A stretch of 37,451 bases of DNA, taken from positions 1 to 37,451 of IMG/VR virus record IMGVR_UViG_3300045988_125650; one strand, given 5' to 3'. Under the pieces are notes generated by a model. That model searched no databases. It was not told where the DNA came from and saw nothing but the letters and a program-made list of their open reading frames with translations. This document shows, piece after piece, positions 870-37,451 of this stretch. Numbering within the stretch: the first letter of the stretch is position 1; each line of letters starts with the position of its first letter. A program made the position numbers and the translations under genes. Source of the DNA: a virus.

Positions 870-1363
870 ACAATACCGAGCAAATAGAAACACCCTCTAA
901 AACGCCGTTTAAAGCCCCTCAGAGCGAAGATAACACAAAAAACGATAATGAACCCATTCAAGAGTTTTCAAGCCCACAGAACGCAAATAAAACGGTCGTG
1001 CCTTTCTTCAAGGATATGTGGGAAGACAGCGAAGAAACCGCCCTTACCGTGGGTATTCCAACCATAAAGGAATTCTGGAACACCACGCCTAAACAATTCA
1101 ATAAATATGTAAGGGCTTATCAACGAAGATTAACTGACATATTCAAGCTAACGGACATAAACAATCACCAACTCGGACTATATGTCAGAACTGCATACGC
1201 TGATGTATGGAGTGATAAAAACAAATACCCTAAAAAACCACAAATGATAGATTTGGACATCTTCCAGTTAGAAGAAAAAGAACCGTCTAAACGAAAACTC
1301 TCAGAACAAGAAGTTCAAGAGTTTCTCGAAAAACGAAGAAAAACAGACAGGAAAAATAAATAA
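597..1363 (+). CDS. Tail assembly chaperone gpGT fusion product made by a -1 frameshift at 857-863 (T-part 862-1363)
   Basis: The -1 frame is open from 851 (stop at 848-850) through 1363. This is the conserved G/GT arrangement upstream of tape measure genes in tailed phages. Confidence 0.55.
857..863 (+). promoter_or_regulatory. Slippery heptamer T_TTT_TTA for a -1 programmed ribosomal frameshift (G to GT)
   Basis: X_XXY_YYZ pattern in the zero frame of the 597 ORF, 2 codons before its stop. The -1 frame is open from 851 to 1363. Confidence 0.6.
897..998 (+). repeat. Dispersed composite repeat, copy 1 (inside the T-part of gpGT; translated ..KAPQSEDN..)
   Basis: A-motif GTTTAAAGCCCCTCAGAGCGAAGATAA plus B-motif AGCCCACAGAACGCAAATAAAACGGTC. 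Confidence 0.6.
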
Positions 1364-4167: not shown

Positions 4168-4539
4168 ATGACAAGAGTTTCTCAACAATTACTCAAAATA
4201 AATGGAATAGCAGTCGCTAACCCTAAAGAATACTCGGTGGAATACAACAAACTTTGGTCAAATGCAGGAAGAAATCTTGCTGGTCGAATGAGTGCCACTC
4301 TCGTGGGACTTTACCCTAAAATCAAGGTCAAAACCGCAATACAAGAGAAAGACGTTTTCGCTAGAATGGCTCAACTCTTGCAACTACCGCAGTTTAACGT
4401 GGAATACTATGACTTTATGTCGCAAACCACTCGCACTGGTATTTTTTACGCAAGTGATTTTGATATTAAATTAAAAGAACGAGAGCGAGGCTTAATTGAA
4501 GAAGTATCTTTTAGTCTTGTTCCTTATGATAAATATTAA
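4168..4539 (+). CDS. Hypothetical tail protein (123 aa). Possibly the N-terminal part of the downstream distal tail protein, separated from it by a single in-frame TAA.
   Basis: RBS AAAGGAATTAAAATG. Same reading frame as ORF 4576-6558, with only TAA plus 12 sense codons between them. Confidence 0.5.
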   Translation: MTRVSQQLLKINGIAVANPKEYSVEYNKLWSNAGRNLAGRMSATLVGLYPKIKVKTAIQEKDVFARMAQLLQLPQFNVEYYDFMSQTTRTGIFYASDFDIKLKERERGLIEEVSFSLVPYDKY

Positions 4540-4653
4540 CCTTATAACGCCGATACAAGCCCTAGGAGCGACTTTATGCTAAAACATACATCAGAATACC
4601 TTTCGGCAGTTAAACAGCGTTCTAAACGCCAGAAAACAGCCTTAGAATTGAAG
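4533..4653 (+). repeat. Dispersed composite repeat, copy 2 (spans the TAA between ORFs 4168 and 4576 and encodes the first ~25 aa of the Dit-like protein)
   Basis: TATAACGCCGATACAAGCCCTAGGAGCGACTTTA ... CAGCGTTCTAAACGCC ... GCCTTAGAATTGAAG. Confidence 0.6.
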
Positions 4654-9030: not shown

Positions 9031-10695
9031 ATGGCAAAATACATTCAAAAAACAAGTCCGAACCTTGATATTAGAGCAAGCCGAGGCTGGTGCTTACAAT
9101 ATGCAGACGATGTGGTTAATGCACCAGTTCGTAGAGAATCGGCAGGGCTAGAATACTTAGCTCAAAGGGCAGCAGGAAATATTCACGAAGAAGAACCTCC
9201 TGTCGGTCTTTGGGTTCCAGTCTTCTTCGATATCACAAGCGGAGAATATGATCCCTACGAACACGTAGGTTGGGCGTTTAAGCACGGAGATGGAAGGATC
9301 GAGATTCATGACAGTGAAGTTCATAGCGGAGCGAGAGGAATTTATAACTCGATTGCTGAAATCTGTCAGTGGTTCAGCATATACGGACTTCGATATCTTG
9401 GTTGGAGTGAACGAATTGGCGGTGTTCAGATTGTAGAGAAAAGCGACAATGTTCGTGTAGTAAATTCAGGTGTTGGAGTAAATGTTCGCTATGAACCTAC
9501 AACTCAATCTGGAGTGTTCGCAACTTATCCAGATGGTTCAGATATTGAAATGGCAGGCTGGGTGTTCGGCGAAAATGTCAATGGTGATGATCGTTGGTTT
9601 AAGTCTAAGCGTTCGGGTGTTTATCTTCACTTCTCGGCTTTCGATGAAAAAGAAGGTTCATTGCCAAATCTGGGAGATTTTCGAAAAGTTCCACAACCTG
9701 AAAGTAAAGCAGTAGTTCCAGAAAATAAAGCTCCTGAATTTATTGAGTTCGAAAAAGAGTTCGACTTTGTAGACGAAGTAGTTCCAGCTCATGTTTCTAA
9801 CCAGTTCTATGGGCGAAAAAATCTCAAAGATGACAATGGAAAATACTTTGGTAATATTCCACAAGATTATGAAATTCAGAAAAAGTTTGTTGATGAATTA
9901 CAGCGAGATTCGCAACCAATTCGTGAAATTACAGTTCATAACACAGCAAATGATTCAATCGAGGCGACAACAAATGAATTTAGGCGCAAGGAAAGCTTTA
10001 AGTCTGCTCATCTTGTAGTTTCGAATGATAAAATCGTTCAAGTTGTGCCAAAAGGAAATACGGCTTTTACAAACGGTAATCACGAAAGCAATATTGAAAG
10101 CTTTACAATTGAATTTCTTGACAATGTGACTGATGAACGTTATGCTGAAGTTCTAAAGAAAGTTTCGCAAGCACTTGGTGTTGATAAAATAGGAAAACAC
10201 CGCGATCATTCTTCAACGGCTTGTCCAGCGCAACTTTCGGACGAAAGATTTAGTAAAATTCTGGCAAAAGTTAAGGGCGAAGATGAAGCTAAACCCGAAG
10301 CGCCAAAACAGCCTGAAAACGAGCCAAAAACACCTGAAAACGAAGGTATTATAACTCAAAATGAAGCTAAAAATGATATGCCGCAAAATAATAAAAGCGT
10401 AATTGGCGATATAGTAGTGCGATTAAACGATAAGGATTTTAAAATGTTAGAAGATTTGCAAAAAGAAGCAGTTAAAAATATTGGCGATATGGATTATGAG
10501 CCACGAATTAGCGAGAAGGCTAAAACTACAGTATATTTCATTGCTGACCTTGGGATTTTGACAAATATGTTAATTGCTACAATTTGCGTAATTTTAATTC
10601 CAAACGCAACAAAAGAGATTTTGGCGATCAGCGGTGCGGTTGCTACGGCATTTGCAGGACTAAAACCAATTTTCAAACTTGGTGCAAAGAAATAA
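9031..10695 (+). CDS. Multidomain endolysin: N-terminal Cys/His peptidase-like region, SH3b-like domain, Amidase_2 (N-acetylmuramoyl-L-alanine amidase) domain, and a C-terminal region with two TM helices
   Basis: Amidase_2/PGRP motifs (ITVHNTAN, SAHLVV, HRDH...TACP). P/E/K-rich linker. C-terminus VYFIADLGILTNMLIATICVILI / ILAISGAVATAFAGLKPIF is strongly hydrophobic. RBS GTAAGGAGAAAATAATG. Confidence 0.8.
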   Translation: MAKYIQKTSPNLDIRASRGWCLQYADDVVNAPVRRESAGLEYLAQRAAGNIHEEEPPVGLWVPVFFDITSGEYDPYEHVGWAFKHGDGRIEIHDSEVHSGARGIYNSIAEICQWFSIYGLRYLGWSERIGGVQIVEKSDNVRVVNSGVGVNVRYEPTTQSGVFATYPDGSDIEMAGWVFGENVNGDDRWFKSKRSGVYLHFSAFDEKEGSLPNLGDFRKVPQPESKAVVPENKAPEFIEFEKEFDFVDEVVPAHVSNQFYGRKNLKDDNGKYFGNIPQDYEIQKKFVDELQRDSQPIREITVHNTANDSIEATTNEFRRKESFKSAHLVVSNDKIVQVVPKGNTAFTNGNHESNIESFTIEFLDNVTDERYAEVLKKVSQALGVDKIGKHRDHSSTACPAQLSDERFSKILAKVKGEDEAKPEAPKQPENEPKTPENEGIITQNEAKNDMPQNNKSVIGDIVVRLNDKDFKMLEDLQKEAVKNIGDMDYEPRISEKAKTTVYFIADLGILTNMLIATICVILIPNATKEILAISGAVATAFAGLKPIFKLGAKK

Positions 10696-10895: not shown

Positions 10896-10929
10896 TTACT
10901 CAAAAATGGTAAAATGTATAAAAAACCTA

Positions 10930-10958
10930 TTGACATTTATTATGTAAAATGTTATAAT
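10930..10958 (+). promoter_or_regulatory. Early promoter copy 1: TTGACA, 17 bp, TG-T-TATAAT, plus conserved leader
   Basis: Consensus -35/-10 boxes. One of four near-identical roughly 80-bp cassettes (10930, 14270, 16479, 21587). Confidence 0.65.
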
Positions 10959-10983
10959 GGAAATATAATAAGGAAAGGAATAT

Positions 10984-11343: not shown

Positions 11344-11361
11344 TCATTTTAAACGCAACCG

Positions 11362-11466
11362 AAATAAAAGCCCTACAACGGGCTTTTTATGTTGGAATGG
11401 GTATTTTACCATTTTTTAATCTAAACTCGCTCAGAACGCAAGGAAATGGCCTTAGAATTGAAATTC
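11362..11466 (+). repeat. Dispersed composite repeat, copy 3 (includes the bidirectional terminator; the 3' end encodes the C-terminus of the VRR-NUC protein on the other strand)
   Basis: AAAGCCCTACAACGGGC ... TTTACCATTTTTT ... CTCAGAACGCAAGGAAATGGCCTTAGAATTGAA. Confidence 0.6.
11366..11388. terminator. Bidirectional intrinsic terminator (AAAAGCCC-TACAAC-GGGCTTTTT) between convergent genes
   Basis: GC stem flanked by an A-run and a T-run. Lies between the + strand ORF ending at 11343 and the - strand VRR-NUC gene ending at 11452. Confidence 0.6.
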
Positions 11467-12048: not shown

Positions 12049-12084
12049 ATGACCCCTTATCTGTTTCAGAAAGGGGTTTCTTTT
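12049..12084 (+). promoter_or_regulatory. 5' stem-loop (CCCCTT...AAGGGG + TTTCTTTT) that sequesters the RBS of the replication gene
   Basis: 7-bp GC-rich inverted repeat ending 8 nt before the ATG at 12085. The GGGG of the likely Shine-Dalgarno lies inside the stem. Followed by a U-run. Confidence 0.35.
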
Positions 12085-13179
12085 ATGGAACAAAAACAAT
12101 TAAAAATAGACAGCATAAAAAGTCGTAGTTATGATTTTAGAGTTGCTCACCTTTATGGTATTGTAGCAAGCTCTCTATTAAACAATATCGCTTATTTTAG
12201 TGATTATCATAACGGCGAAGAATATTGGCATAATCAAAGTGAAATCGCTTGGATTTTAGGTTGTTCGGAGTATCAAATCCGAAATGCTAAAAATAAACTC
12301 GAAGAAGCAGGAATAATTCAAGCTCGACAATCATATAAACCAAACTCAAATGTAAAAACCACATATTGGAAAATATGCGAAAACGCAGGAGCAATTATTG
12401 ATGAACAATGGGAGCAATTCTTACTTTCAGTAAATGAAAAAACTAAATCCTCTGAACCTAAAAAAACTAAATCCTCTGAACCTTTAGAAACTGCATCTTC
12501 AGAGACTTTAGAAACTTCATCTTCTTTATATAAATCTAATAATATAAATCTAATAAATAAATCTAATAATAAAAATAATTTTAATAGTATAAATACTATT
12601 AAAAGAGCAAAAAGCTCTAAGAACACGTGTATCACAGAAAAAAATTTAAATTCTCAAAACTCTGAAATCTCTCAATCTTCTATTAAACCGAAGAAAACAT
12701 CTAAACAAAATGAAACTCTCAATATCGAAACAAACTCTCAAACGGAAGAAAACCTTAATTCCATTAAACCGAAAGAATTAAACTCTAAAAAACACCGCGA
12801 GCCGAATGAGTGGGGCGGTTATGGCAAACCAGAAATAGACCACTTATTCTATGAATGGGAAAAATCAGTAAAAACACCCTTAACTGGAACTAAACAGCTA
12901 AACCGCAATACTGCACAAAGGCTATTAAAAAAATATTCTGAAGATGACCTTATAGGAGCAATTAAGATAGTTGCCCTTACTAAACAAACCGACGACAGAT
13001 ATATTCCAGTTATTAACAGCTTAATGGACTTGGAGAATAAATTCGGTAGTTTAGTTCATTGGTATCAAAAGAACAAACAAGCATACGAAGAACAACAACG
13101 GATTAAACAAGCAACAGAAGGCGACACCCTTTCAGAAGAAGACCTATTGGCATATATGGAAATGATGAAAGATGAATAA
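12085..13179 (+). CDS. Replisome organiser / replication initiation protein (N-terminal wHTH; low-complexity middle region encoded by the ori iterons)
   Basis: Probable start MEQKQLK at 12085 (the ORF track starts at 12049 inside the hairpin). N-terminal region resembles phage replisome-organiser/DnaD-like initiators. Internal iteron and AT-rich block as in lactococcal and streptococcal phage ori regions. Confidence 0.55.
   Translation: MEQKQLKIDSIKSRSYDFRVAHLYGIVASSLLNNIAYFSDYHNGEEYWHNQSEIAWILGCSEYQIRNAKNKLEEAGIIQARQSYKPNSNVKTTYWKICENAGAIIDEQWEQFLLSVNEKTKSSEPKKTKSSEPLETASSETLETSSSLYKSNNINLINKSNNKNNFNSINTIKRAKSSKNTCITEKNLNSQNSEISQSSIKPKKTSKQNETLNIETNSQTEENLNSIKPKELNSKKHREPNEWGGYGKPEIDHLFYEWEKSVKTPLTGTKQLNRNTAQRLLKKYSEDDLIGAIKIVALTKQTDDRYIPVINSLMDLENKFGSLVHWYQKNKQAYEEQQRIKQATEGDTLSEEDLLAYMEMMKDE
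12438..12800 (+). repeat. Putative origin of replication: direct iterons plus an AT-rich block inside the replication gene
   Basis: AAAAAACTAAATCCTCTGAACCT x2 (24-bp period), TTTAGAAACT(G/T)CATCTTC x2, AAATCTAATAA x3, repeated AAACTCTCA units. About 75% AT around 12530-12600. Confidence 0.5.
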
Positions 13180-13207
13180 AACAATCTCTGACTACTGTAA
13201 ATCAATT

Positions 13208-13326
13208 TTAAAGCCATTTACAAGCCCTACAAGCGACTTTAACACACGAAATGAATACTTTACCATTTTTAACGCTAAAAGCCCGTAGAACGCAAGGAAA
13301 TAGGCTTAAAACGCAAAATAACGCAA
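13208..13326 (+). repeat. Dispersed composite repeat, copy 4 (intergenic, after the replication gene)
   Basis: CATTTACAAGCCCTACAAGCGACTTTAA ... TTTACCATTTTTAACGCTAAAAGCCCGTAGAACGCAAGGAAATAGGCTTAAAACGCAA. Confidence 0.65.
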
Positions 13327-14188: not shown

Positions 14189-14269
14189 ACCATTTTGCCC
14201 ACATAGGCAAATAGGTTTTCCACAGAATTGTGGATAACTCAAAAAGTCTAAAAATGTCTAAAAAATCTA

Positions 14270-14298
14270 TTGACATTTATTAAGTAAATTGCTATAAT
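14270..14298 (+). promoter_or_regulatory. Early promoter copy 2: TTGACA, 17 bp, TGCTATAAT, plus conserved leader
   Basis: Near-identical to the promoters at 10930, 16479 and 21587. Preceded by GTCTAAAAA A-tract repeats. Confidence 0.65.
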
Positions 14299-14339
14299 TA
14301 AACTATAATCAATTAAACACATAAGGAAAGGAAACGATT

Positions 14340-16441: not shown

Positions 16442-16478
16442 AAAATCTAAAAAATGTCTATAAAATGATAAAAATCTA

Positions 16479-16507
16479 TTGACTTTTCTTGTGTAAAATA
16501 TTATAAT
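16479..16507 (+). promoter_or_regulatory. Early promoter copy 3: TTGACT, 17 bp, TATAAT, plus conserved leader
   Basis: Near-identical cassette. Upstream ATCTAAAAAATGTCTATAAAA A-tract repeats. Confidence 0.6.
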
Positions 16508-16548
16508 GTAAATATAATCAATTAAACATACAAGGAAAGGAAAATAGT

Positions 16549-21535: not shown

Positions 21536-21586
21536 CTTTATAAATGAAAAAAGTCTAAAAAAGTATAAAAAAGTCTAAAAAAACTA

Positions 21587-21615
21587 TTGACTTTTATCGT
21601 GTAAAAATATATAAT
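21587..21615 (+). promoter_or_regulatory. Early promoter copy 4: TTGACT, 17 bp, TATAAT, plus conserved leader
   Basis: Near-identical cassette. Preceded by three AGTCTAAAAAA/AGTATAAAAAA repeats. Confidence 0.6.
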
Positions 21616-21657
21616 AGTAATATAAATAAATAATACATACGAAGGAAAGGAAATAGT

Positions 21658-22248: not shown

Positions 22249-23229
22249 ATGACTAAACAACAGAAATCACAAGGTTTTGGAATTTTATTAGATGAAATCA
22301 ATAACGCTATCGAAGGACAAATCACAGAAAAACTATTAGAAGCAAAAAAGGAAATTCAAGCTGAATTAGATAAGCTACACTCACAGCAACCAACCGTAGT
22401 TATTCAAGGTCGCAAAAAAACTCAAATCAAGGGACTAAAGCATAAACAGCTGGACACCTTACTAAAAGTAGTTGGAATTGACCAGAACGCTTTACTCGTA
22501 GGTTCAGCGGGTAGTGGAAAAACTAAAGCTGGACAACAAGTAGCAGAAGCCCTAAAATTGGACTTTTACGCTATCAGTGTCGGCTCACAAACTTCAAAGT
22601 CGGACATTCTGGGCTATATGGATGCAAAGGGAGAATATGTTCAAACTGAATTTCGCAAGGCATATGAAAAAGGTGGGGTCTTCCTTATGGATGAAATTGA
22701 TGCAGGAAACTCAAATGTTTTGATTGTCTTAAACTCAGCCTTAGCGAACGGACTTTGTGCATTCCCAGACAAAATGGTAGAAAAACACAAGGACTTTCGT
22801 TTTATTGGAACCGCTAACACCTACGGAAATGGAGCAAATCGCCAGTATGTTGGTCGCAATCAGCTGGACAGTGCAACTCTCGACCGCTTTACTATCATTG
22901 ACTGGGAGATTGATGAAACTCTTGAGAAAAATCTCATTAGCTCATATGAAAGTGGAGAATATTGGCACGCAGTCATTAAGAAAATTCGAGACTATATTAA
23001 AAGGAATGAAATCAGAGCTATTGTTTCGCCACGTGCTACAATGAAAGGTGTTCAACTCTTAGGGCTTGGCTTTACTTTAGAAGAAACCTTGGAAATGTGT
23101 GTTTTTGGACAAGTTCCAGAAGATAAAATTCACAATGTTCGAAAAGAAGCTCAATCCGTGCCTAAACCTAAACACAAGGAAAAGCAAGAAGAAAAGAAAG
23201 AAGTTGAAGATTACCAGCTACCTTTCTAA
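22249..23229 (+). CDS. MoxR-like AAA+ ATPase (AAA_5/CbbQ-type)
   Basis: Walker A LLVGSAGSGKT, Walker B VFLMDEID, sensor TANTYGN and arginine finger. Single AAA+ module with an N-terminal extension. Confidence 0.75.
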   Translation: MTKQQKSQGFGILLDEINNAIEGQITEKLLEAKKEIQAELDKLHSQQPTVVIQGRKKTQIKGLKHKQLDTLLKVVGIDQNALLVGSAGSGKTKAGQQVAEALKLDFYAISVGSQTSKSDILGYMDAKGEYVQTEFRKAYEKGGVFLMDEIDAGNSNVLIVLNSALANGLCAFPDKMVEKHKDFRFIGTANTYGNGANRQYVGRNQLDSATLDRFTIIDWEIDETLEKNLISSYESGEYWHAVIKKIRDYIKRNEIRAIVSPRATMKGVQLLGLGFTLEETLEMCVFGQVPEDKIHNVRKEAQSVPKPKHKEKQEEKKEVEDYQLPF

Positions 23230-23244
23230 ATAAGGAGAAAAACA

Positions 23245-24195
23245 ATGATAGACTTATTAGCAAAAGCTACAGATGACACTCATCATCACCCAGAATATAA
23301 GTTATCGTGGGGCTATCTCGAAGAAGATAAAGAAGATGAAAACTTCGATAGAGAGGATACTGGCTTTTACACGAGAGAAGAAGAAATATTCGTTAAGGCC
23401 AAAGGATTAAATAATTTTATTCGTGCAATCCTTGATGATGACAAAAATCATTTCATAGGACAGAAAAATGAGCATAACTCAAGCCATAAACAAAAAGAAG
23501 CAGGCTTTAATTATTTCGACGATTGGGACAAATGCATTGATTGCTTTCTAAACAATCCCCTCTCATTGAAAGAATTCACGGAGAACGAAGAACAACTCAC
23601 AGAACACAATTCTTCTGGAAATAGTGTTGAATATGACAAAACTGGGGACTTCCTTGATGTATCAAAATTCTTAGGCGGAGATATGGATTGTTTCGGTAGT
23701 ATGACAGACGGAAATCTTCAAAATAGATATATGAATTTAATTATCACCATTGGAGGAAACGCAGGAATTACTAACGGAGAATTGCGAGCATACGCAGGAA
23801 TAATTCAAGAGATTGTGGACTTTCTGGAGAATAATAAAATTAGGTGTAAAGTGGAAGCATTCACCACGAACCAATGTTCCACACTTCAACTAACAGTCAA
23901 AGATTATGATGAACCTTTATCACTTTCAGACATTTTCGTTATCATGAACCCAGACTTTTTCCGCAGACTTCATTTTAGAGTTGCAGAGAGAAGCCCTACC
24001 ATTAACTGGAGTTATGGAGATGGAACTGTTGCACCATACATAGAAGCCCTTGCTGAAGAAAATACACCGACATTGTATTTTAAGAAAAGAAAATATTTCG
24101 GAGATATGGAAAAACTAAAAGAAGAAACCTACAAAGAAATCCAAAATGCTATTGATAACTGGGACAAAAACCCAACACCACTCATAACTTTATAG
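23245..24195 (+). CDS. Hypothetical protein (316 aa), probable functional partner of the MoxR-like ATPase
   Basis: Coupled to the ATPase gene (RBS AAGGAGAAAAACAATG 13 nt after its stop). No clear VWA MIDAS motif. Confidence 0.45.
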   Translation: MIDLLAKATDDTHHHPEYKLSWGYLEEDKEDENFDREDTGFYTREEEIFVKAKGLNNFIRAILDDDKNHFIGQKNEHNSSHKQKEAGFNYFDDWDKCIDCFLNNPLSLKEFTENEEQLTEHNSSGNSVEYDKTGDFLDVSKFLGGDMDCFGSMTDGNLQNRYMNLIITIGGNAGITNGELRAYAGIIQEIVDFLENNKIRCKVEAFTTNQCSTLQLTVKDYDEPLSLSDIFVIMNPDFFRRLHFRVAERSPTINWSYGDGTVAPYIEALAEENTPTLYFKKRKYFGDMEKLKEETYKEIQNAIDNWDKNPTPLITL

Positions 24196-24264: not shown

Positions 24265-24561
24265 ATGGACAACAAACAGCGGAAAAATCCGGATTTTCCT
24301 ACGAACTGCAAAATATGCGGTGGAATTTTAGACCCCCTACCATATTTTAATGACGTGAATGCTTATGAAGATGAGCAAGGAAGATTTTGCAAAGTATTAG
24401 CACGCTTTCCTAACGGAGAGCCACGAACCTTTGAATACACTTTAGCTTGCAGGAACAATCCTAACGAACACCCACAACTAAAAGTTGTTGAAACACCTTG
24501 CGTGGGTTTCAGAAGTGTCATTCGAGCAGATAAATATGATGTCAATAAATTAAAAATATAG
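24265..24561 (+). CDS. Zinc-finger protein (98 aa; CKICGG ... C..C)
   Basis: Cys pairs at the N-terminus plus internal Cys residues. Confidence 0.45.
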   Translation: MDNKQRKNPDFPTNCKICGGILDPLPYFNDVNAYEDEQGRFCKVLARFPNGEPRTFEYTLACRNNPNEHPQLKVVETPCVGFRSVIRADKYDVNKLKI

Positions 24562-24656
24562 CTATAACGCTGATAATCGCGTTCTAAGCGAAGATAAGTC
24601 AAAAGATATATTCGCTATCATCTTTTAAGTTAAAACGCCGTAGAACGCAAGGAAAC
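24557..24656 (+). repeat. Dispersed composite repeat, copy 5 (intergenic, upstream of the modification-like operon)
   Basis: TATAGCTATAACGCTGATAATCGCGTTCTAAGCGAAGATAAG ... AAAACGCCGTAGAACGCAAGGAAACGAGG. Confidence 0.6.
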
Positions 24657-24667
24657 GAGGAATAACA

Positions 24668-24952
24668 ATGAATAAAGAACAAGCAGAGAAATTTATTTCT
24701 AAACAAAAGTGGATTTTCGCTAAGACTTACGCTAAAACTGCACCACACGAGTATATAATGGTATTCCCTAACTCACCACACCGAAAGGAAGCCGAAGAGT
24801 TCTATCAGTTAATTCAAAAAGACGGCTATGTAAAAAAATTCTTCACCAAGGAATACAAATACATAGACATCGCTGGCTATAAATACTGGACAATGATCAG
24901 CAAAGATGGCTTTAATAAGGATTGGTCAATCAATAGGGAACCGTTAAAATGA
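24668..24952 (+). CDS. Hypothetical protein (94 aa), first gene of the modification-like operon
   Basis: RBS (G)AGGAATAACAATG. Stop overlaps the next start (AAATGAAAATC). Confidence 0.5.
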   Translation: MNKEQAEKFISKQKWIFAKTYAKTAPHEYIMVFPNSPHRKEAEEFYQLIQKDGYVKKFFTKEYKYIDIAGYKYWTMISKDGFNKDWSINREPLK

Positions 24953-25506
24953 AAATCATAGTCAAAGCAGTCAAAGAACGAGAACCATATGTAAATATCA
25001 TCAAGCAGGAAATTCCAGAAGTCATAGTTGTCTGGGACAAAAAAAAGGATGCAATGGACACTTATCTTCGAGCATTAAAAACAGCAGGAGATGAAGCAAC
25101 TATTCAGCTGGAAGATGATATTGAGCTAACCACAAATTTTACTCAAAAGGCAACTTCAATCATTTCAGAAGTCAAAGAAAAACACGGCGACATCGCTATT
25201 CAATTTTTCTCAATGAGAAAAGCGGACATTGAAATTGGAAGCAGACTAGAAAATGGAAGCTCATACTTAATGGCACAAGCCACCTACCTACCACCAGGAA
25301 TGGCAAAAGACTTCCTACAATGGACTAACAATATCAATTTGGAGGAATATGGCAATGGAGTAGATGAATTATTCGGAGATTATCTCAAATCAAACAAATT
25401 GAAATATTGGATTGCAGTTCCTTCATTAGTTCAACACCGAAAAATAAAATCAGCAATCGACCCAAGGCGTTCATCAGCCAGACAATCGAAAACCTTTCAG
25501 AAATAA
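24949..25506 (+). CDS. Putative GT-A-fold (family 25-like) glycosyltransferase-like protein (185 aa)
   Basis: N-terminus MKIIV...REPYVNIIKQ and a DxD-like LEDDIEL resemble the GT25/Lic2A family. Weak, from memory. Confidence 0.3.
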   Translation: MKIIVKAVKEREPYVNIIKQEIPEVIVVWDKKKDAMDTYLRALKTAGDEATIQLEDDIELTTNFTQKATSIISEVKEKHGDIAIQFFSMRKADIEIGSRLENGSSYLMAQATYLPPGMAKDFLQWTNNINLEEYGNGVDELFGDYLKSNKLKYWIAVPSLVQHRKIKSAIDPRRSSARQSKTFQK

Positions 25507-25527
25507 TAAGAAATAAGGAGAAATAAA

Positions 25528-26028
25528 ATGGAAAATGAAAAAATTATTCGTGTAGTAAAATCAACTGGAATTGGCAACAATTCACTCGGAGCTTTCGACA
25601 ATGCACTCTTTAATGCAGGTGTTCATAATTACAACCTTATCAGACTTTCGAGCGTTGTTCCAGAAGGATACACAGTTGTAAAATCAGACGGAAAAGCTCT
25701 CACAGACGGAAAATGGGGCGACAAACTCTATGTCGTTATGGCCATTCAACACGCAGATAAACCAGGGGAAGAGGCTCACGCTGGAATTGGCTGGGCGTAT
25801 GATAAAAACAATCCAGAACACGGACTATTCGTGGAACACGAAGGCACAAGCCTTGAATACGTGGAAACAGCTATTCGCACAAGCCTTAAAGACCTTTTTG
25901 AAAGCCGAGGCTTAGAGATGGGAGAAATTGATATGATTACTTCTTCAATCAAATGCGAAGATAAACCAGTAGTAGCATTTTGTGTATCAGCATTCGAGGC
26001 ACAAGGCTGGAATAACTTGCGAGGTTAA
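25528..26028 (+). CDS. Pyruvoyl-dependent arginine decarboxylase (PvlArgDC/PdaD/AaxB)-like protein
   Basis: 166 aa, the typical size. The stretch LGAFDNALFNAGVHNYNLIRLSSVVP closely matches the PvlArgDC core (archaeal PdaD [23 protein letters not shown], recalled from memory), including the Ser-Ser self-cleavage site. Confidence 0.65.
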   Translation: MENEKIIRVVKSTGIGNNSLGAFDNALFNAGVHNYNLIRLSSVVPEGYTVVKSDGKALTDGKWGDKLYVVMAIQHADKPGEEAHAGIGWAYDKNNPEHGLFVEHEGTSLEYVETAIRTSLKDLFESRGLEMGEIDMITSSIKCEDKPVVAFCVSAFEAQGWNNLRG

Positions 26029-26029
26029 A

Positions 26030-27163
26030 ATGGCTACTCGACTATACAAAACAACCGACGTATTCGAAGAAGGGCTCAACCGAATGCGGTGGCTCTTCGA
26101 AGAGTTCAATAACAATGTATGCGTGAATTTTTCTGGTGGAAAAGATAGCACCGTTGTTCTTAATTTAGCACTTATGGTGGCAAGAGAAAGAAACGCCCTA
26201 CCTTTAAAGGTATTCTTCCTTGACCAAGAAGCAGAATGGCAAGCTACAATCGACGAAATCAAAGCGGTTATGTATGACCCAGAAGTCGAGCCGTATTGGT
26301 TTCAAGTTCCTTTCAAAATGGAAAATTCAGCCTCAACCGAAGGAAAATGGCAGAAAATCTGGGGCAAAGGTGAAGAGTGGATTAGACCACAAGACCCTAT
26401 CTCAATTAAAGACATTGGTTATGATACTTCCGACTTAGAGTTTTACGACTTATTCTCACATTTTCTGGACTGGAAATTCCCAAAAACTAAAGCGTGTTTA
26501 GTGGGAGGGGTTCGAGCTGAAGAAAACCCTAACCGTGCGTTGGGGCTAACTCGTATGGCTACCTACAAATGGATTACGTGGGGCAAAAAAACTGAAATGG
26601 CTAAAAACGCTAAAATTCACTTCACCTTTTACCCAATTTATGACTGGACTTACGCTGATGTATGGAAAGCTATCGCAGACAATAACTGGCGATATTGCAA
26701 GATTTACGACAAACAGTATCAATATGGCTATAACATTCAAAATATGCGAGTATCATCATTGCACCATTCGACGAGCCTATCTTCACTTTACTCATTACAA
26801 GAACTAGAACCAGAAACTTACGAGGCAATCGTTCATCGAATGAGTGGAGTAGATACCGTAGGAAAACTCGGAAAAGAAGACCACTATGTCAAAGACTTAC
26901 CTTTTATGTTCACAGACTGGGTGGAATACCGAGATTATCTTTTGGAAAACTTAATTAAAAGGGAAGATGAAAAAGAAATCTTCAGACACGCTTTTGAAAA
27001 ATTTGATAACAAATATTCGAAGTATATTGATATGGAGAGAATTGCTCAACTCGAGATAACTTGCATTATATCGAATGACTTATATATGGTTAAATTAAAA
27101 AACGCTGAGAGACACCACGACTTCATCGCAGCGGATAAAAGGAGAATTGCAGAAAATGGTTAA
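26030..27163 (+). CDS. IbrA/DndC-like PP-loop ATP pyrophosphatase (PAPS-reductase fold with DUF3440-like C-terminal domain)
   Basis: PP-loop motif VNFSGGKDSTVVL. A ~200-aa extension after the PAPS-reductase core. ATG at 26030 with RBS GAGGT (the track start at 25982 overlaps the upstream gene). Confidence 0.75.
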   Translation: MATRLYKTTDVFEEGLNRMRWLFEEFNNNVCVNFSGGKDSTVVLNLALMVARERNALPLKVFFLDQEAEWQATIDEIKAVMYDPEVEPYWFQVPFKMENSASTEGKWQKIWGKGEEWIRPQDPISIKDIGYDTSDLEFYDLFSHFLDWKFPKTKACLVGGVRAEENPNRALGLTRMATYKWITWGKKTEMAKNAKIHFTFYPIYDWTYADVWKAIADNNWRYCKIYDKQYQYGYNIQNMRVSSLHHSTSLSSLYSLQELEPETYEAIVHRMSGVDTVGKLGKEDHYVKDLPFMFTDWVEYRDYLLENLIKREDEKEIFRHAFEKFDNKYSKYIDMERIAQLEITCIISNDLYMVKLKNAERHHDFIAADKRRIAENG

Positions 27164-27815
27164 AATAGAAGACTTCACACAAAAACACACAATCGAAGAA
27201 GACCGCCCTATATACAAGGTGGACAATTCCACGCTACCGGAACAAGTGAGGCACAACGCTTGTGCAAATATCTGTTTCATTCCTATTGAAAAGGTTCAAG
27301 CTAACGACTACAACCCTAACGCAGTGGCAACTCACGAAATGAAACTTCTTTATGTTTCTGTTAAAGCGGACACCTACACAATGCCCGTAGTTACCATTTA
27401 CGACCCAGAAATTAAGAAGTATGTCATCATTGATGGTTTCCACCGATACTCAACAATGCGAAGAAACAAAGACATTTATGAAATGAATGACGGTTATCTT
27501 CCTTGCGTAGTCCTAGACAAAAACATTAATGAGCGAATGGCTTCCACAGTTCGCCACAATCGAGCAAGAGGCAAACACTCAGTAAATGGAATGTCTACAA
27601 TCGTTTTCGAGATGTTAAAAAATGGCAAAACAGATGAACAAATCTGTAATGAACTTGGACTTGAAGTCGAAGAACTTGTTCGCCTAAAACATATCACTGG
27701 CTACTCTAAACTCTACCAGAATGTCCAATACTCTAAAGCGTGGGAAACGGACAATCAAATTGAAATAAAACGCAAATACAAGCAGGAGCACCCAGATGAG
27801 CAAATCACAATCTAA
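27147..27815 (+). CDS. ParB/Srx-fold (ParB N-terminal domain) protein, IbrB/DndB-like
   Basis: DGxHR-type motif IIDGFHRY, HNRARG. Overlaps the IbrA-like stop. Confidence 0.7.
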   Translation: MQKMVKIEDFTQKHTIEEDRPIYKVDNSTLPEQVRHNACANICFIPIEKVQANDYNPNAVATHEMKLLYVSVKADTYTMPVVTIYDPEIKKYVIIDGFHRYSTMRRNKDIYEMNDGYLPCVVLDKNINERMASTVRHNRARGKHSVNGMSTIVFEMLKNGKTDEQICNELGLEVEELVRLKHITGYSKLYQNVQYSKAWETDNQIEIKRKYKQEHPDEQITI

Positions 27816-28428
27816 GGACACGAAGTCAAAAGACACAAAGTTAAAGAAGATTAAACTTTCTAAAATTAAGCCGTATAATCTCAATGCACGAGATAATAAC
27901 AAATACGCAGTTCAAGCCGTAGTAGAAAGTATTAAACGCTACGGCTACACAAACCCAATCATCGTTGATGAAAAGAATGTTATCATTGCTGGACATACAC
28001 GCTACCTTGCACTTAAGGAATTAAATTTTGATGAAGTGGAAGTTATCGTATCAAAGATGAGTGAAGATGAAGCTAAAGAATACCGTATCATCGACAACAA
28101 AACTAACGAGCTATCGCAGTGGGATGAGAAAAATCTTCAGTTTGAATTACGAGAATTTGAACAAAGGGACTACGCTCAAGAACTATTCCCAGAAATCAAG
28201 GACAATATCAAAATTCAAGACACCACGGAGTATGATATTGATGAGAAAGATTTTGAAAGAATTGAGAAAAAACTCGGAGAAGATTTTGAAGAAAAGATGA
28301 ACAAAAAAACTTCATCTGATGACTTTCTGGAAATCAAGTGTCCGCACTGTGGCAGAACATTCTTAATGCCAATTCCAGACCTACTGCACAAATTCAAAAT
28401 TGAAAAATTAAACAGGGAGCAAGAATAA
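27796..28428 (+). CDS. ParB N-terminal-domain protein with C-terminal zinc ribbon (paralog A)
   Basis: Motif IIAGHTRYLA; KEYRIIDNKTNE; C-terminal CPHCG. Overlaps neighbouring genes. Confidence 0.65.
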   Translation: MSKSQSKDTKSKDTKLKKIKLSKIKPYNLNARDNNKYAVQAVVESIKRYGYTNPIIVDEKNVIIAGHTRYLALKELNFDEVEVIVSKMSEDEAKEYRIIDNKTNELSQWDEKNLQFELREFEQRDYAQELFPEIKDNIKIQDTTEYDIDEKDFERIEKKLGEDFEEKMNKKTSSDDFLEIKCPHCGRTFLMPIPDLLHKFKIEKLNREQE

Positions 28429-28976
28429 TGATTTCAAAGAAAACAGTCCATATTGATGAAATTGTTCCATACTGGAGAAACCCACGAGATAACAACGAGA
28501 ACGCTATCATAGCAGTCGCTAAGTCTATTGAAAAGTTTGGTTATCAAGCTCCAATCCTCGTGGATAGTAAAATGACAATTATTGCTGGACACACACGCTA
28601 CAAAGCATTACGCAGATTACGCACTGAATACGTAGAAGTTGTAGTATCAGATATGTCGCAAAAACAAGCCAAGGAATACCGCATTGTAGATAACCGAACA
28701 AACGAGTATTCTAACTGGATTATTGATAATGTTCTTGCTGAATATGAGGAAATCAAAGCCCCAGACCTTCTGGATGATTTATTCCCAACTATTCGTGGCA
28801 AAGAAGAAATCGAAGAACAAGAAGAAGAATATATTTCACCACGAGAGCAAGCTAAAACACTCACAATCGAAGACAATGATTATATTGAAATAATCTGCCC
28901 TAACTGTTTTAATGGATTTGAAATGACCTACAAGGAGTTTAAAAAACTCTGTAAAGAGCAGAATAAAAAATTCTAA
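28428..28976 (+). CDS. ParB N-terminal-domain protein with C-terminal zinc ribbon (paralog B; tandem duplicate of 27796-28428)
   Basis: Motif IIAGHTRYKA; KEYRIVDNRTNE; C-terminal CPNC. The start overlaps the upstream stop (TAATGA). Confidence 0.65.
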   Translation: MISKKTVHIDEIVPYWRNPRDNNENAIIAVAKSIEKFGYQAPILVDSKMTIIAGHTRYKALRRLRTEYVEVVVSDMSQKQAKEYRIVDNRTNEYSNWIIDNVLAEYEEIKAPDLLDDLFPTIRGKEEIEEQEEEYISPREQAKTLTIEDNDYIEIICPNCFNGFEMTYKEFKKLCKEQNKKF

Positions 28977-28997
28977 ACAAAAAGAAAGGAAAAACAA

Positions 28998-29489
28998 ATG
29001 GCAACTAAAATACCACTTTCAAGAATACCGTCTGCACCAAAAGTGAAACCAAAAAAGAACAGTGGGCGTGGCTATCACCCAGACGGCACACCCTACAATC
29101 CAACTGGAAAAGGTGGCTTCGGAGACAATCCACAGAACCGAGCTAACGGACACTGGGACAGTAAAATGACCCCAAGCTTTCAATACAAACGCTTTTTGAA
29201 TATGGACAGTGCCTCACTTATTGAATACGCTAAACAATGGAGAATTATTCAATTAAACAAAACCGAAATCAAAAGCGGAAAATATGATGGAGAATTCCCC
29301 CACACCGTGGTGGAAGAAATGGCACTTCGCCGAGTTCTTGCTGGTATGAAAAGCCTTGCAGATGTGAAAGAAATAACAGACCGTGTTGAGGGGCGAGCTA
29401 CCTACAAAGTCGAACAGAAAATTGAACACGACTTCGCCAACTACTCAAGCGAAGACCTTGAAAAACTTGCGAGAAGCTTAAATGAATAA
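28998..29489 (+). CDS. terS: Terminase small subunit (putative)
   Basis: 163 aa, immediately upstream of and overlapping the large terminase gene. Basic N-terminus. Confidence 0.55.
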   Translation: MATKIPLSRIPSAPKVKPKKNSGRGYHPDGTPYNPTGKGGFGDNPQNRANGHWDSKMTPSFQYKRFLNMDSASLIEYAKQWRIIQLNKTEIKSGKYDGEFPHTVVEEMALRRVLAGMKSLADVKEITDRVEGRATYKVEQKIEHDFANYSSEDLEKLARSLNE

Positions 29490-30891
29490 CGAACAACTTG
29501 CACTCATAAGCATTGAACTGGCGATTAGGAAAAGTCGCCAGTCTTTTCTATGGTTTGTCAAAAATGTTTTTTCGGCATCTTTTGGATTGAATGAATTCGT
29601 GTATGGAAAATACATTGAAGAAGTCATTACGGGAATGGAAGAACACAAATGGACTATGGACGTTTCAGCTCGAGACCACTTCAAAAGCACACGCTTATAC
29701 GCAGAAGTTATGTATGATTTATTCACCACTCAAACCGACCTAGAATGTAGATACTTTTCTTACCAAGCTGGAATGAGTGGCTACCACCTAGGAAAAATCA
29801 AGCGTATGATTGAACAAAATCCATTCTTCCACCCTAAAATGTTCATAGACCAAAGCCCTACATCTTTATCTGTATTACGCTACACAACACCTAACGGAGC
29901 TATTTATGAAGCAAGACCAGAAGGACTACTCTCATTTAAACGTGGTATTCACGCTGAACGCATTTACGTGGACGACCCACTTAAAGACCCAGAGAACAAA
30001 CTCGCACCGACAGTCATTCATAAAATCAATAATGTTATCAAGCTGGAAATCTTCCCAATGGTGAAAAAAGGTGGCTACTATCGTGTTGTTGGAACACCAC
30101 AGACAAATCACGACTTTTTCTTTGATAAAGGACTTCAGAGAAGACTTCACACAAACATTCGCCCAGCTATTAAAAGTGAAAAGAAAAAAGAAGTTATCTT
30201 TCCAGAATGGAAATCATACGAGGAATTAAATGATATTCGCAAAACCATTGGGGAGAAAGCTTTCAATCAGGAATATATGACTAAACCTGCATATAGTGAA
30301 AATTCTTATATTGAGAGAAAAGACCTTAACAAATGCGTAGATATTGAACTTGAAGACTTCGACAATAAGCCTTACTCACGCCCAGAGGGTGTAGATATTG
30401 TGGCAGGATTTGATATTGGTAAAAAAGCACACCCTAGTCATTTTGCTATTTTCGAGAGAACAATCAATCCAGAAACAAATCAATATCAATATAAACAAAT
30501 TCACCAGAAGTTTTTAGACCACGTGGAATACAAAGACCAAGTGGAATATATCAACCTCGCAGTGGAAAAGTATGAAATAGACATTCTACGCTATGACAAC
30601 ACCAGAGCGGAATTTGAAGCATTCGCAGAACAACAACTCTTACCTAACTGTATGATACCTGTTCAATTCAATATACGAACTAACAACCTTATGGCAGTTA
30701 GTCTTAATAAAGTCATTCAAGAAGAACGAGTTAAATTCATAGATGAAGAAAGACAAATAGACCAAATTCTTCAAGTCAATAATGAATTAAAAGCAATCGA
30801 AAGCCCACTGGGACACGGAGATAGTTTTTGGAGCAACGCCTTAGCTTTATACGAAGAAAAACCAAAAGAATATAGTATCAGGTTCTTATAA
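29482..30891 (+). CDS. terL: Terminase large subunit
   Basis: 469 aa. N-terminal ATPase and C-terminal nuclease region (VVGTPQTNHDFFFDKG, DIVAGFDIG). Position before the portal gene. Confidence 0.8.
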   Translation: MNNEQLALISIELAIRKSRQSFLWFVKNVFSASFGLNEFVYGKYIEEVITGMEEHKWTMDVSARDHFKSTRLYAEVMYDLFTTQTDLECRYFSYQAGMSGYHLGKIKRMIEQNPFFHPKMFIDQSPTSLSVLRYTTPNGAIYEARPEGLLSFKRGIHAERIYVDDPLKDPENKLAPTVIHKINNVIKLEIFPMVKKGGYYRVVGTPQTNHDFFFDKGLQRRLHTNIRPAIKSEKKKEVIFPEWKSYEELNDIRKTIGEKAFNQEYMTKPAYSENSYIERKDLNKCVDIELEDFDNKPYSRPEGVDIVAGFDIGKKAHPSHFAIFERTINPETNQYQYKQIHQKFLDHVEYKDQVEYINLAVEKYEIDILRYDNTRAEFEAFAEQQLLPNCMIPVQFNIRTNNLMAVSLNKVIQEERVKFIDEERQIDQILQVNNELKAIESPLGHGDSFWSNALALYEEKPKEYSIRFL

Positions 30892-30907: not shown

Positions 30908-31017
30908 TATATAGCCGTATAACGCCGATACAAGCCCCACAAGCGACTTTAAACTCAAAAAGGCATACAAACTCATCTTTTGAATAAAAACGCCATACAA
31001 CGCAAATATAACGGTCA
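30908..31017 (+). repeat. Dispersed composite repeat, copy 6 (intergenic, between terL and the portal gene)
   Basis: TATAGCCGTATAACGCCGATACAAGCCCCACAAGCGACTTTAAAC ... AAAACGCCATACAACGCAAATATAACGGTC. Confidence 0.65.
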
Positions 31018-36934: not shown

Positions 36935-37410
36935 TGGACAGAAATAGAACAATCACCAAACAAACTAAAAACTTAATCATAAACGCCCTTAAACAAATCC
37001 CACCATTGGAAGATGGCACTGAATTTAACTTTATCGCAGAAGACGGCGAAGACTTCTTTGAACAATACCCAGCAATTCGTGTTATTCCTAGTGGCATTAC
37101 AAGGGAGATAGACAGTGAACAAGGTCGCATAGACTATAAAATGGACTTCACCATTTCGGTGTATCTGGAATTAAACTCAAACACTCCAACAAAGGAACTC
37201 ATCGACACAATCACTGATATGACAGATAGCATTCTTTATCAACTGGACTATACAAATTGGCTACCAGAAACGCAAGGCAACAGATACGGCTTTGTCTTAG
37301 TGGAAAATTCAACCAGCTCAACTATTGATATAATCCAAACTAAAAGTGGAAGCGTGTTATACAATGATATGACTTATACAGTGTCATATCGAGAGCCACT
37401 CACACTGTAA
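36934..37410 (+). CDS. Tail terminator / tail completion protein (putative)
   Basis: 158 aa. Last gene before the major tail gene on the circular map. Its stop lies inside the terminal duplication. Confidence 0.45.
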   Translation: MDRNRTITKQTKNLIINALKQIPPLEDGTEFNFIAEDGEDFFEQYPAIRVIPSGITREIDSEQGRIDYKMDFTISVYLELNSNTPTKELIDTITDMTDSILYQLDYTNWLPETQGNRYGFVLVENSTSSTIDIIQTKSGSVLYNDMTYTVSYREPLTL

Positions 37411-37451
37411 AAAAACATACTCATATGGTAAAATTGTTATAATAACGAATA
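37397..37451. repeat. Second copy of the 55-bp terminal duplication (identical to 1-55)
   Basis: Exact match to the window start; it overlaps the stop codon of the last head-tail gene (stop at 37408-37410). Confidence 0.9.

Follow-up and report, generated by a model that had tools for sequence, protein, structure and literature searches.

Small ParB-like proteins beside an IbrA-IbrB gene pair and the terminase genes of a phage: a possible accessory role in DNA modification

Introduction

The DNA analysed here, IMG/VR virus record IMGVR_UViG_3300045988_125650 (the window, 37,451 nucleotides in full), carries three consecutive plus-strand open reading frames (ORFs) for ParB/Srx-fold proteins between the gene of an IbrA-like PP-loop enzyme and the terminase genes, and raises the question of what such proteins do at this position in a phage. 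A preliminary description, made from the sequence alone, located the ORFs at 27147-27815, 27796-28428 and 28428-28976, as is confirmed here. The first, ORF1, is assigned to the IbrB family, and ORF2 and ORF3 are designated Pc1 and Pc2, "Pc" being the name used in this report for small ParB-N/CPxC proteins (phrog_620) of 150-260 amino acids. Nearly every member of the Pc family neighbors, or is fused to, IbrA-IbrB, a DpdA-type transglycosylase or a DNA methyltransferase. Because Pc-type helpers in other phages are nearly always found beside or fused to DNA-modifying enzymes, the block of genes in the window is most likely a DNA-modification module, and we give an even chance to the specific proposal that it forms the accessory half of such a module, co-expressed with the packaging genes.

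Annotated phage genomes already contain the protein families, the pairing of IbrA with IbrB and the layout of three ParB genes ahead of the terminase, and the window is one more example of an arrangement known from the databases. Added here are a systematic link of Pc to three unrelated classes of DNA-modifying enzymes (IbrAB, DpdA and DNA methyltransferases), the finding that IbrA has no conserved cysteines, and the reduction of a proposed "zinc ribbon" to a half-site. To our knowledge, the IbrA-IbrB pair has gone uncharacterised for about two decades. The searchable literature holds no established biochemistry for IbrAB or its relative YbdNM, and on the function of these proteins or of phrog_620 it offers only annotations and regulatory data.

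Gene neighborhoods of the Pc and IbrB families

The 80 viral loci seeded with the Pc profile were dereplicated at 80% identity to 47 lineages. IbrA-IbrB immediately adjoins Pc in 19 of these, four of which carry two tandem Pc genes; 13 lineages have single or double Pc genes without IbrAB, 11 have a Pc-type domain within a protein of more than 300 amino acids, and four have small proteins without a CxxC tail. The proteins longer than 300 amino acids are DNA methyltransferase fusions where annotated, the 11 not having been scanned one by one. Where IbrAB is missing from a Pc locus, Pc is directly followed by a gene for a DpdA-like tRNA-guanine transglycosylase (TGT; phrog_887) in 13 of 19 cases and for a DNA methyltransferase in four, and the junction between Pc and this gene is usually a stop/start overlap. 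On the simplest reading of these neighborhoods, Pc would be a generic accessory subunit of phage DNA-modification enzymes, and since IbrA-IbrB is exchangeable with DpdA and the methyltransferases in the same slot, it would itself be DNA-modifying.

Viral loci seeded with IbrB have IbrA directly upstream in 67 of 68 evaluable cases and a Pc-CxxC gene in the same cluster in 55 of 80 (38 downstream and 17 a few genes upstream). The link of the three proteins to the PP-loop gene that the preliminary description had drawn is therefore borne out, co-conservation being clear. That description had passed over the company that the same small ParB proteins keep with DpdA transglycosylases and DNA methyltransferases in other phages, as well as the presence of the same gene layout in cultured Microbacterium phages.

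Several named phages illustrate these arrangements. The gene order is Pc, DpdA, Vut_1/YhhQ, terS, terL in a C. difficile prophage (CP103804.1, locus L165) and Pc, methyltransferase, methyltransferase, terS, terL in Moraxella phage Mcat8, and Fusobacterium phage phiFN37 carries IbrA-IbrB and also a Pc gene followed by a TGT and a queuosine-precursor transporter. In Microbacterium phage Rasputia, gp156 resembles phosphoadenosine phosphosulfate (PAPS) reductase, gp1 is IbrB-like, the two Pc proteins, gp2 and gp3, carry CPTC and CPSC tails, gp4 is a helix-turn-helix (HTH)/terS protein and gp5 is the terminase; the genes preceding gp156 encode three glycosyltransferases, an acetyltransferase and a methyltransferase. 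The C. difficile locus also contains, at L165 248-2851 and about 3 kb upstream of Pc-DpdA, genes for a nucleoid-associated protein (NAP; NA37) and a short PAPS reductase (phrog_424), a pair that resembles the NAP and PAPS reductase found among PANGU-related defence clusters (bioRxiv 10.64898/2026.04.06.716658).

The terminase genes are a further recurrent neighbor. A large ORF lies within 3.5 kb after the Pc-CxxC gene at 57 of 64 loci (63 fetched loci and the window), usually 340-550 nucleotides (nt) downstream where IbrA is present, and among the large ORFs scanned (36 non-redundant ones and the window's terL) 26 of 37 match phrog_2 (terL), with many other terL families matched too. That Pc closely precedes terS and terL in phages whose terL genes belong to many different families would suit packaging-linked nickases or nucleases that cut DNA non-specifically for the terminase, in concatemer, pac or cos maturation, or that degrade host DNA, in the manner of the HNH endonucleases encoded beside terminase genes. 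A B. cereus prophage ParB-methyltransferase fusion of the same domain type does nick DNA non-specifically and adjoins terS (PMC3592412; PMC5512222), and actinophage annotations read 'ParB-like nuclease domain protein'. However, the immediate, stop/start-overlapping neighbors of Pc are modification enzymes and not terminases, terL is 2-3.5 kb away in several loci with other genes in between, and the fusion partners of Pc are methyltransferases, not terminase or HNH domains. The many unrelated terL families beside Pc themselves argue against a specific terminase partnership, and neither Pc nor IbrB has a clear metal-dependent nuclease motif. Both a cutting role of this kind and its likening to the HNH endonucleases are thus considered unlikely.

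In the window, the ParB genes belong to a nine-gene block without gaps on the plus strand (24668-30891), which ends at its 3′ side with terS and terL and has the order orf94, orf185, pyruvoyl-dependent arginine decarboxylase (ArgDC), IbrA, IbrB (ORF1), Pc1 (ORF2), Pc2 (ORF3), terS-position protein, terL. Neighboring genes overlap by 4, 8, 20, 1 and 8 nt and are otherwise spaced by at most 21 nt; by this pattern, IbrA, IbrB, Pc1 and Pc2 are translationally coupled. The putative small terminase (28998-29489, plus strand) is a basic protein of 163 amino acids (isoelectric point, pI, 9.4) assigned by position only, and the large terminase terL (29482-30891, plus strand) matches phrog_5909 at 6e-15 and phrog_38 at 3e-11. 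Just inside the 5′ end of terL, a terminator-like hairpin with a 10-bp stem and a T-rich tract is seen on the plus strand at 29517-29542.

IbrB, the product of ORF1

The IbrB-family ParB/Srx protein (27156..27815, plus strand) consists of a ParB N-domain and a helical HTH-like domain. The mechanical ORF (27147-27815) begins with TTG at 27147, and the ATG at 27156 is the probable start because the near-identical homologue P0121 has 219 amino acids and an AAAGGAG ribosome-binding site lies upstream. ORF1 overlaps the end of IbrA by 8 nt (17 nt with the TTG start), as is also seen for IbrA/IbrB of Streptococcus phage CHPC877. It matches phrog_2159 at 8.5e-70, a family that PHROGs labels ParB-like partition protein and whose close Streptococcus-phage homologues carry the annotation IbrB. 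At the DNA level, the matches in Streptococcus phages are genes annotated IbrB or ParB-like, each following an overlapping IbrA/PAPS-reductase gene, and 141 cultured phage records carry an IbrB homologue.

The IbrB family numbers at least 7,982 homologues, and the 30 members that were aligned share 55-78% identity. Its motifs are ANDYNPN, DGFHRY and RMASTVRHNRARGKHS; ORF1 contains ANDYNPN, DGFHRY and RHNRARGKHS, and its C-terminal half is HTH-like. ORF1 has no Pfam match at E<=0.01, and many of its close homologues carry a precomputed PF02195 match. BLASTP finds no significant similarity between ORF1 and ORF2 or ORF3 (E 0.01-0.03); the family profiles align over the ParB core (hhalign E 1.9e-5). 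In the AlphaFold2 (AF2) model of ORF1, with a predicted local distance difference test score (pLDDT) of 70, Foldseek matches Noc, ParB and KorB over 137-163 columns, covering the N-domain and the HTH-like domain, and the model lacks a C-terminal dimerisation domain. On sequence grounds, ORF1 is a member of the IbrB family, which is separate from and far more conserved than that of ORF2 and ORF3. Of the three paralogs in the preliminary description, ORF2 and ORF3 are true paralogs, and ORF1 stands outside them.

The HTH-like domain and the matches to KorB and Noc would also suit transcription regulators of the late operon, as would the position at the head of the packaging/late region, a frequent place of late activators. 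The IbrAB annotation itself stems from the activation of prophage eib genes in E. coli (discussed in PMC4541368). A regulatory role leaves the obligatory PP-loop enzyme partner unexplained, and equally the ability of Pc to substitute for or fuse with methyltransferases and DpdA. Moreover, the genes share one gap-free block with terS and terL instead of preceding a promoter, and immediately before Pc the C. difficile prophage encodes a distinct late regulator (phrog_36). Late-operon regulation is a distinctly improbable function for these genes.

Pc1 and Pc2, the products of ORF2 and ORF3

Pc1 (27796..28428, plus strand) overlaps IbrB by 20 nt; an acidic linker joins its ParB N-domain, preceded by a Lys-rich N-terminal tail, to a single C-terminal CPHC knuckle (C182, C185). 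In its paralog Pc2 (28428..28976, plus strand), the knuckle is CPNC (C157, C160) and the Lys-rich tail is absent; the Pc2 start codon shares 1 nt with the Pc1 stop (TAATG). The alignment of the two proteins that the preliminary description had reported, with the motifs it quoted, is reproduced by BLASTP (41% identity over 175 residues, E 1e-41). Its view of them as recent duplicates is not upheld at this level of protein identity: a repeat search of the window gives no DNA-level similarity between the Pc1 and Pc2 genes, and the related contig L006 has a distinct ortholog for each copy, that of Pc2 having the same CPNCFNGF tail, so that the duplication is older than the split from L006. The Lys-rich tail of Pc1 contains a tandem duplication of five residues, SKDTK-SKDTK (residues 4-13; 27805-27834), and the unit is single in the close relatives P0003 to P0005 (205 amino acids).

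Both proteins exceed the gathering score of ParB_N (PF02195; 26.3 bits), Pc1 with 36.3 bits (5.7e-9) and Pc2 with 30.4 bits (4.1e-7), and both match phrog_620 (1.9e-45 and 1.6e-35, respectively). The Pc1 N-domain also matches the N-terminus of DNA methyltransferases in phrog_498 (1.6e-34) and of the PADLOC family MTase_II (4.9e-20). The family thus has a methyltransferase-type ParB N-domain followed by a variable acidic linker and a C-terminal CPxC knuckle, and all 16 positions that are invariant in an alignment of 40 members are present in both Pc1 and Pc2. In the AF2 model of Pc1 (pLDDT 87), the N-domain superposes on B. subtilis ParB-CDP with a root-mean-square deviation (rmsd) of 2.2 A over 97 columns; beyond it come only three short acidic helices, a long helix and the knuckle, and no HTH. 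Foldseek matches the Pc1 and ORF1 models to ParB, Noc, pNOB8 ParB-N, PadC, KorB, Srx and SerK with probability 1.00, and Pc2 is inferred to share the fold from its identity to Pc1. The ParB/Srx fold proposed for all three proteins is accordingly supported by Pfam, phrog_2159, the profile alignment and the models.

The nucleotide pocket is kept in part. The Pc residues R32, G66, R69 and N101, which are conserved or nearly so, are the equivalents of the box I Arg, the GxxR and the ENxxR of ParB/Noc. The canonical GERRxRA box reads GHTRYxA (invariant) in Pc and DGFHRY in IbrB, and box III reads (Y)RIxDNxxxE in Pc, with DN replacing EN, and RHNRARGKHS in IbrB; the canonical GERRxRA and ENxxR boxes thus keep only their Gly, second Arg and Asn. 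The description of these proteins as CTP-dependent clamps or nucleases is on this basis a family-level analogy only. Both Pc proteins are acidic (pI 5.1-5.5), with linker net charges of -11 and -14, and because they also lack an HTH domain, the sequence-specific DNA recognition earlier suggested for the two small paralogs is unlikely.

The CPxCG motif is the classic rubredoxin-type metal knuckle. The only tail cysteines invariant across the 40 aligned Pc members are C182 and C185, and many members stop six to nine residues later. Pc1 has two cysteines in total and Pc2 three, and the Pc1 model forms a single beta-hairpin knuckle at 177-192, followed by a helix. With only two cysteines conserved, the CPxC tail is, as read from alignment and model, half a metal site and not the zinc ribbon of the preliminary description, which would need four ligands in two knuckles on two beta-hairpins of one chain. 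The motif is kept in both copies of every tandem Pc pair examined, which suggests an intermolecular metal site holding a dimer, here plausibly Pc1-Pc2. IbrA was considered as the partner that completes the site and is an unlikely one, since its family conserves no cysteine and Pc proteins retain the tail in phages that lack IbrA.

The names attached to these families ('ParB-like partition protein' in PHROG/NCBIfam), weak parB_part and Noc matches and the circular assembly could point to plasmid-prophage partition, with the ParB homologues as centromere-binding proteins of an extrachromosomal prophage. This explanation is largely refuted and retains only a very slight probability. No ParA, integrase or repressor is found among the ORFs scanned, which do not include every small ORF, and no parS-like inverted repeat cluster is present near the genes. 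The NCBIfam scores are far below the cut-offs (45 versus 315 bits), Pc lacks both the HTH and the C-terminal dimerisation domain, and its family keeps company with modification enzymes.

The IbrA-like enzyme and its upstream neighbors

The IbrA-like PP-loop ATP pyrophosphatase (PAPS_reduct and DUF3440; 26030..27163, plus strand) is encoded upstream of the three ORFs and would form the enzymatic core of the module. It matches Pfam PAPS_reduct at 4e-16 and DUF3440 at 4e-5, and phrog_2302 at 8.5e-77. The mechanical ORF begins with GTG at 25982, and the ATG at 26030 is the probable start because homologues have 377-382 amino acids and the gene call in contig L164 (Logan SRR7448286, a relative of about 98% identity) begins directly after the ArgDC gene. 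In that contig, IbrA is called as two ORFs of 172 and 222 amino acids (L164 2236-3368), which would represent a frameshift/pseudogene or an assembly error.

Across an alignment of 86 family members, the SGGKDS PP-loop is invariant and no cysteine is conserved, which speaks against sulfur chemistry of the DndC or CysH type and favors a simple adenylylating ATP pyrophosphatase. IbrA does weakly match DndC and BrxP. Dnd-like phosphorothioation was rejected, with no conserved cysteine in IbrA, no Dnd partners and a DndC score of 27 bits against a cut-off of 290.

The gene for ArgDC (25528-26028, plus strand; Pfam PvlArgDC PF01862, 1.6e-27) has its stop one base upstream of the IbrA start. The enzyme is a possible supplier of an amine substrate, and its membership in the module is uncertain; it was not found in any of 87 other loci compared and was therefore rejected as a conserved partner of IbrA, only the broader tailoring/decarboxylase class being recurrent. 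In other IbrAB loci, the slot upstream of IbrA holds S-adenosylmethionine (AdoMet, SAM) decarboxylase (5-6), GNAT acetyltransferases (6-7), SAM methyltransferases (about 12) or DNA methylases (8), and one locus has a saccharopine/carboxyspermidine-dehydrogenase-like gene in the ArgDC-equivalent slot. More generally, group-transfer enzymes (methyltransferases, methylases, GNAT and AdoMet decarboxylase) are overrepresented among the genes that separate Pc from IbrA or immediately precede IbrA. AdoMet decarboxylase is pyruvoyl-dependent, like the ArgDC of the window. The genes of the upstream slot hint at an amine or polyamine connection of IbrA.

Such a connection could also be taken to mean that IbrA ligates the amine made by ArgDC or AdoMet decarboxylase to a small-molecule or protein acceptor, for instance to provide counter-ions for packaged DNA, and that the ParB/Srx proteins are ATP-dependent phosphotransferases like sulfiredoxin, SerK and SbnI. 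The pyruvoyl ArgDC of the window and the AdoMet decarboxylase, GNAT and dehydrogenase-like genes beside IbrA elsewhere agree with this, Srx, SerK and SbnI are structural neighbors of both AF2 models, and an IbrA without conserved cysteines fits an amidoligase-type reaction. The other partners of Pc, DpdA and DNA methyltransferases, act on DNA, however, and IbrB has a ParB-type HTH-like domain. Furthermore, ArgDC is not conserved with IbrA, and DNA methylases are as frequent upstream of IbrA as decarboxylases. We regard both the small-molecule ligation and the phosphotransferase role as very unlikely.

A proposed accessory role in DNA modification

As a DNA-modification module, the block could operate as follows. 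IbrA-IbrB would modify replicated phage DNA before packaging, with IbrB providing DNA binding, and the reaction would be of the adenylylation type and not a sulfur transfer, given that no cysteine is conserved in IbrA. Pc1 and Pc2 may act for IbrAB as the ParB-like ATPase DpdB does for DpdA, and nucleotide-gated dimerisation of their ParB N-domains could help the enzyme to engage or move along duplex DNA. Each Pc would contribute one CPxC to a shared four-cysteine metal site and so form a constitutive C-terminal dimer, in the window a Pc1-Pc2 heterodimer, with this site standing in for the canonical ParB C-terminal dimerisation domain.

Precedents exist for such an arrangement. DpdB is a dimeric ParB-like ATPase that is required together with DpdA for preQ0 to be inserted into DNA, and its ATPase activity is stimulated by DpdA-DNA (PMC10164549). 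A ParB-like ORF beside a phage DpdA was earlier proposed as a DpdB homologue (PMC6392294), and small ParBc proteins accompany phage CmoX DNA-modification genes, where they were flagged as being of unknown function (PMC12783734).

Several observations weigh against this proposal. The sole experimental report on IbrAB, as cited in PMC4541368, concerns the activation of prophage eib genes and not DNA modification, and the RAST-style annotation of Streptococcus phage IbrAB likewise refers to eib activation. The searchable literature shows no modified base, NTPase activity or zinc binding for either family. Acidic proteins without an HTH domain are a poor fit to a DNA clamp, and the CTP-binding residues of Pc are only partly kept (GHTR for GERR, DN for EN). 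The analogy between Pc and DpdB is functional, and Pc is no member of the DpdB family, since motif, size and C-terminal domain differ. With 25 of the 80 IbrB-seeded loci showing no Pc gene, Pc is facultative for IbrAB, and the Streptococcus phages have IbrAB without Pc and away from the terminase genes. The near-identical contig L164 has IbrA split in two ORFs and the three ParB genes intact. Finally, modification genes and Pc might have come together merely through their place at the early/late boundary, although the stop/start overlaps and gene fusions disfavor simple co-location.

A bolder version of the modification proposal would make IbrA-IbrB a new ATP-dependent enzyme that adenylates DNA and attaches an amine- or polyamine-derived group from the pyruvoyl decarboxylases often encoded beside it, with Pc as a universal minimal ParB; this we think doubtful. 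Similarly doubtful is its structural counterpart, a nucleotide-gated Pc N-domain dimer closed by a CPxC-Zn-CPxC hook, which phages would combine with chemically unrelated DNA modifiers so that the whole genome is modified efficiently ahead of packaging, here as Pc1-Pc2.

Two predictions follow from the exchange of IbrAB, DpdA and DNA methyltransferases as partners of one small ParB family, and Microbacterium phage Rasputia, Flavobacterium phage FCL-2 and C. difficile prophages are among the cultured cases to which they apply. The first is that IbrAB modifies DNA, and the second is that the small ParB proteins enhance DNA modification in general. Were both true, phages would gain a further chemistry for modifying DNA, and the nucleotide switch of ParB a new use.

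Repeats and other features of the window

A dispersed intergenic repeat of about 100 nt is present in six copies (approximately 905-991, 4525-4600, 11355-11446, 13202-13300, 24557-24655 and 30912-31010), with conserved blocks TATAACGCCGATACAAGCCC, AAGCGACTTTAA, CCATTTTT and GCCnTAGAACGCAAGGAAA. Most copies are just upstream of plus-strand gene starts, and Rfam and tRNA scans of the window return no matches, the repeat included; it could be a phage-specific promoter or leader family. The copies at 24557-24655 and 30912-31010 bracket the ArgDC-IbrA-IbrB-Pc-Pc-terS-terL block and are the closest of the six. The idea that the ParB-like proteins recognise these repeats or pac-like sites finds no support, and the repeats were rejected as their targets: each of the six is intergenic and falls outside the block, and nothing links them to ParB binding.

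A second repeat family in the early region (10921-10976, 14261-14316, 16470-16525 and 21578-21633) contains near-consensus sigma-70 promoters (TTGACA, 17 nt, TATAAT). These promoter repeats and the strong AAGGAG ribosome-binding sites suggest a host with canonical sigma-70 recognition. The relatives of the major capsid protein, with at most 37% identity and spread across many genera, do not indicate a host.

The ends of the window share an identical 55 nt (1-55 and 37397-37451), which indicates that the assembly, of about 37,396 bp, is circular or terminally redundant, and the window is therefore probably a complete phage genome. Pfam and PHROG scans show the gene content of a siphovirus-like phage of about 37.4 kb. 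Its genes comprise terS and terL followed by portal/MuF, protease and major capsid protein, as well as a tape measure gene at 1363-4119 and tail protein genes; an endolysin is encoded at 9031-10695, and the early genes include an Erf-like annealing protein. A MoxR/CobS-like AAA ATPase (phrog_249, 2.6e-59) followed by a DUF7192 protein occupies 22249-24195, and this pair is kept in L164. A 24-nt tandem duplication in two perfect or near-perfect copies (AAAAAACTAAATCCTCTGAACCTA) is located at 12437-12484 within the ORF at 12049-13179, whose 376-amino-acid product is weakly replication-initiator or DnaD-like.

Comparison with known systems

The IbrA/IbrB pair of the E. coli ECOR-9 island has the same composition as that of the window, a PAPS_reduct and DUF3440 gene with an overlapping ParB-like gene, as also seen in CHPC877, and E. 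coli K-12 ybdN/ybdM encode the same two domain types (PMC9068703). E. coli genomes give no DNA-level match to the IbrA-IbrB of the window. Phage copies of the pair are known from Streptococcus, Flavobacterium, Lactobacillus and Microbacterium phages; the Streptococcus pairs, unlike that of the window, are not followed by two Pc genes and the terminase genes. The Dnd system resembles the window in combining a PAPS-reductase-like PP-loop enzyme with a ParB-like (DGxHR-type) protein acting on DNA, as in DndC and DndB, but the window has no DndA, DndD or DndE, and IbrB has no match to the PADLOC DndB.

DpdB shares with Pc the ParB N-domain fold, and relatives of Pc are directly upstream of DpdA-like genes in 13 of the 19 non-IbrAB loci; next to Pc, the window has no DpdA-like gene, which relatives of Pc in other phages do have beside them. 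DpdB forms a homodimer whose N-domains are regulated by nucleotide, with a monomer of about 40-48 kDa (80-95 kDa as a dimer), a DGQQR motif and an alpha-helical SspE-like C-terminal domain (PMC10164549), whereas Pc proteins have 150-260 amino acids, GHTR, an acidic linker and the CPxC tail. The ParB-methyltransferase fusions, such as that of B. cereus ATCC 10987 and phrog_498, have an N-domain of the same subfamily, with 50-59% identity to some, and occupy the same genomic position near terS. In contrast to the fusions, ORF2 and ORF3 have no methyltransferase domain and end after the linker in a CPxC tail of about 35 residues.

The canonical ParB, Noc and KorB clamps are similar in the N-domain, which is within about 2 A of ParB-CDP/CTPgS, and in the box I Arg, the box II Gly and second Arg and the box III Asn. 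They differ in having GERR where Pc has GHTR and IbrB has DGFHRY, in the HTH that Pc lacks and in the C-terminal dimerisation domain that neither family possesses. The closest arrangement in a cultured phage is that of Rasputia, and likewise of Hendrix, Leaf and Dewdrop, where the order IbrA, IbrB, Pc, Pc, terS, terL is the same as in the window, and the differences are a high-GC actinobacterial host, a genome of 97 kb and no ArgDC upstream.

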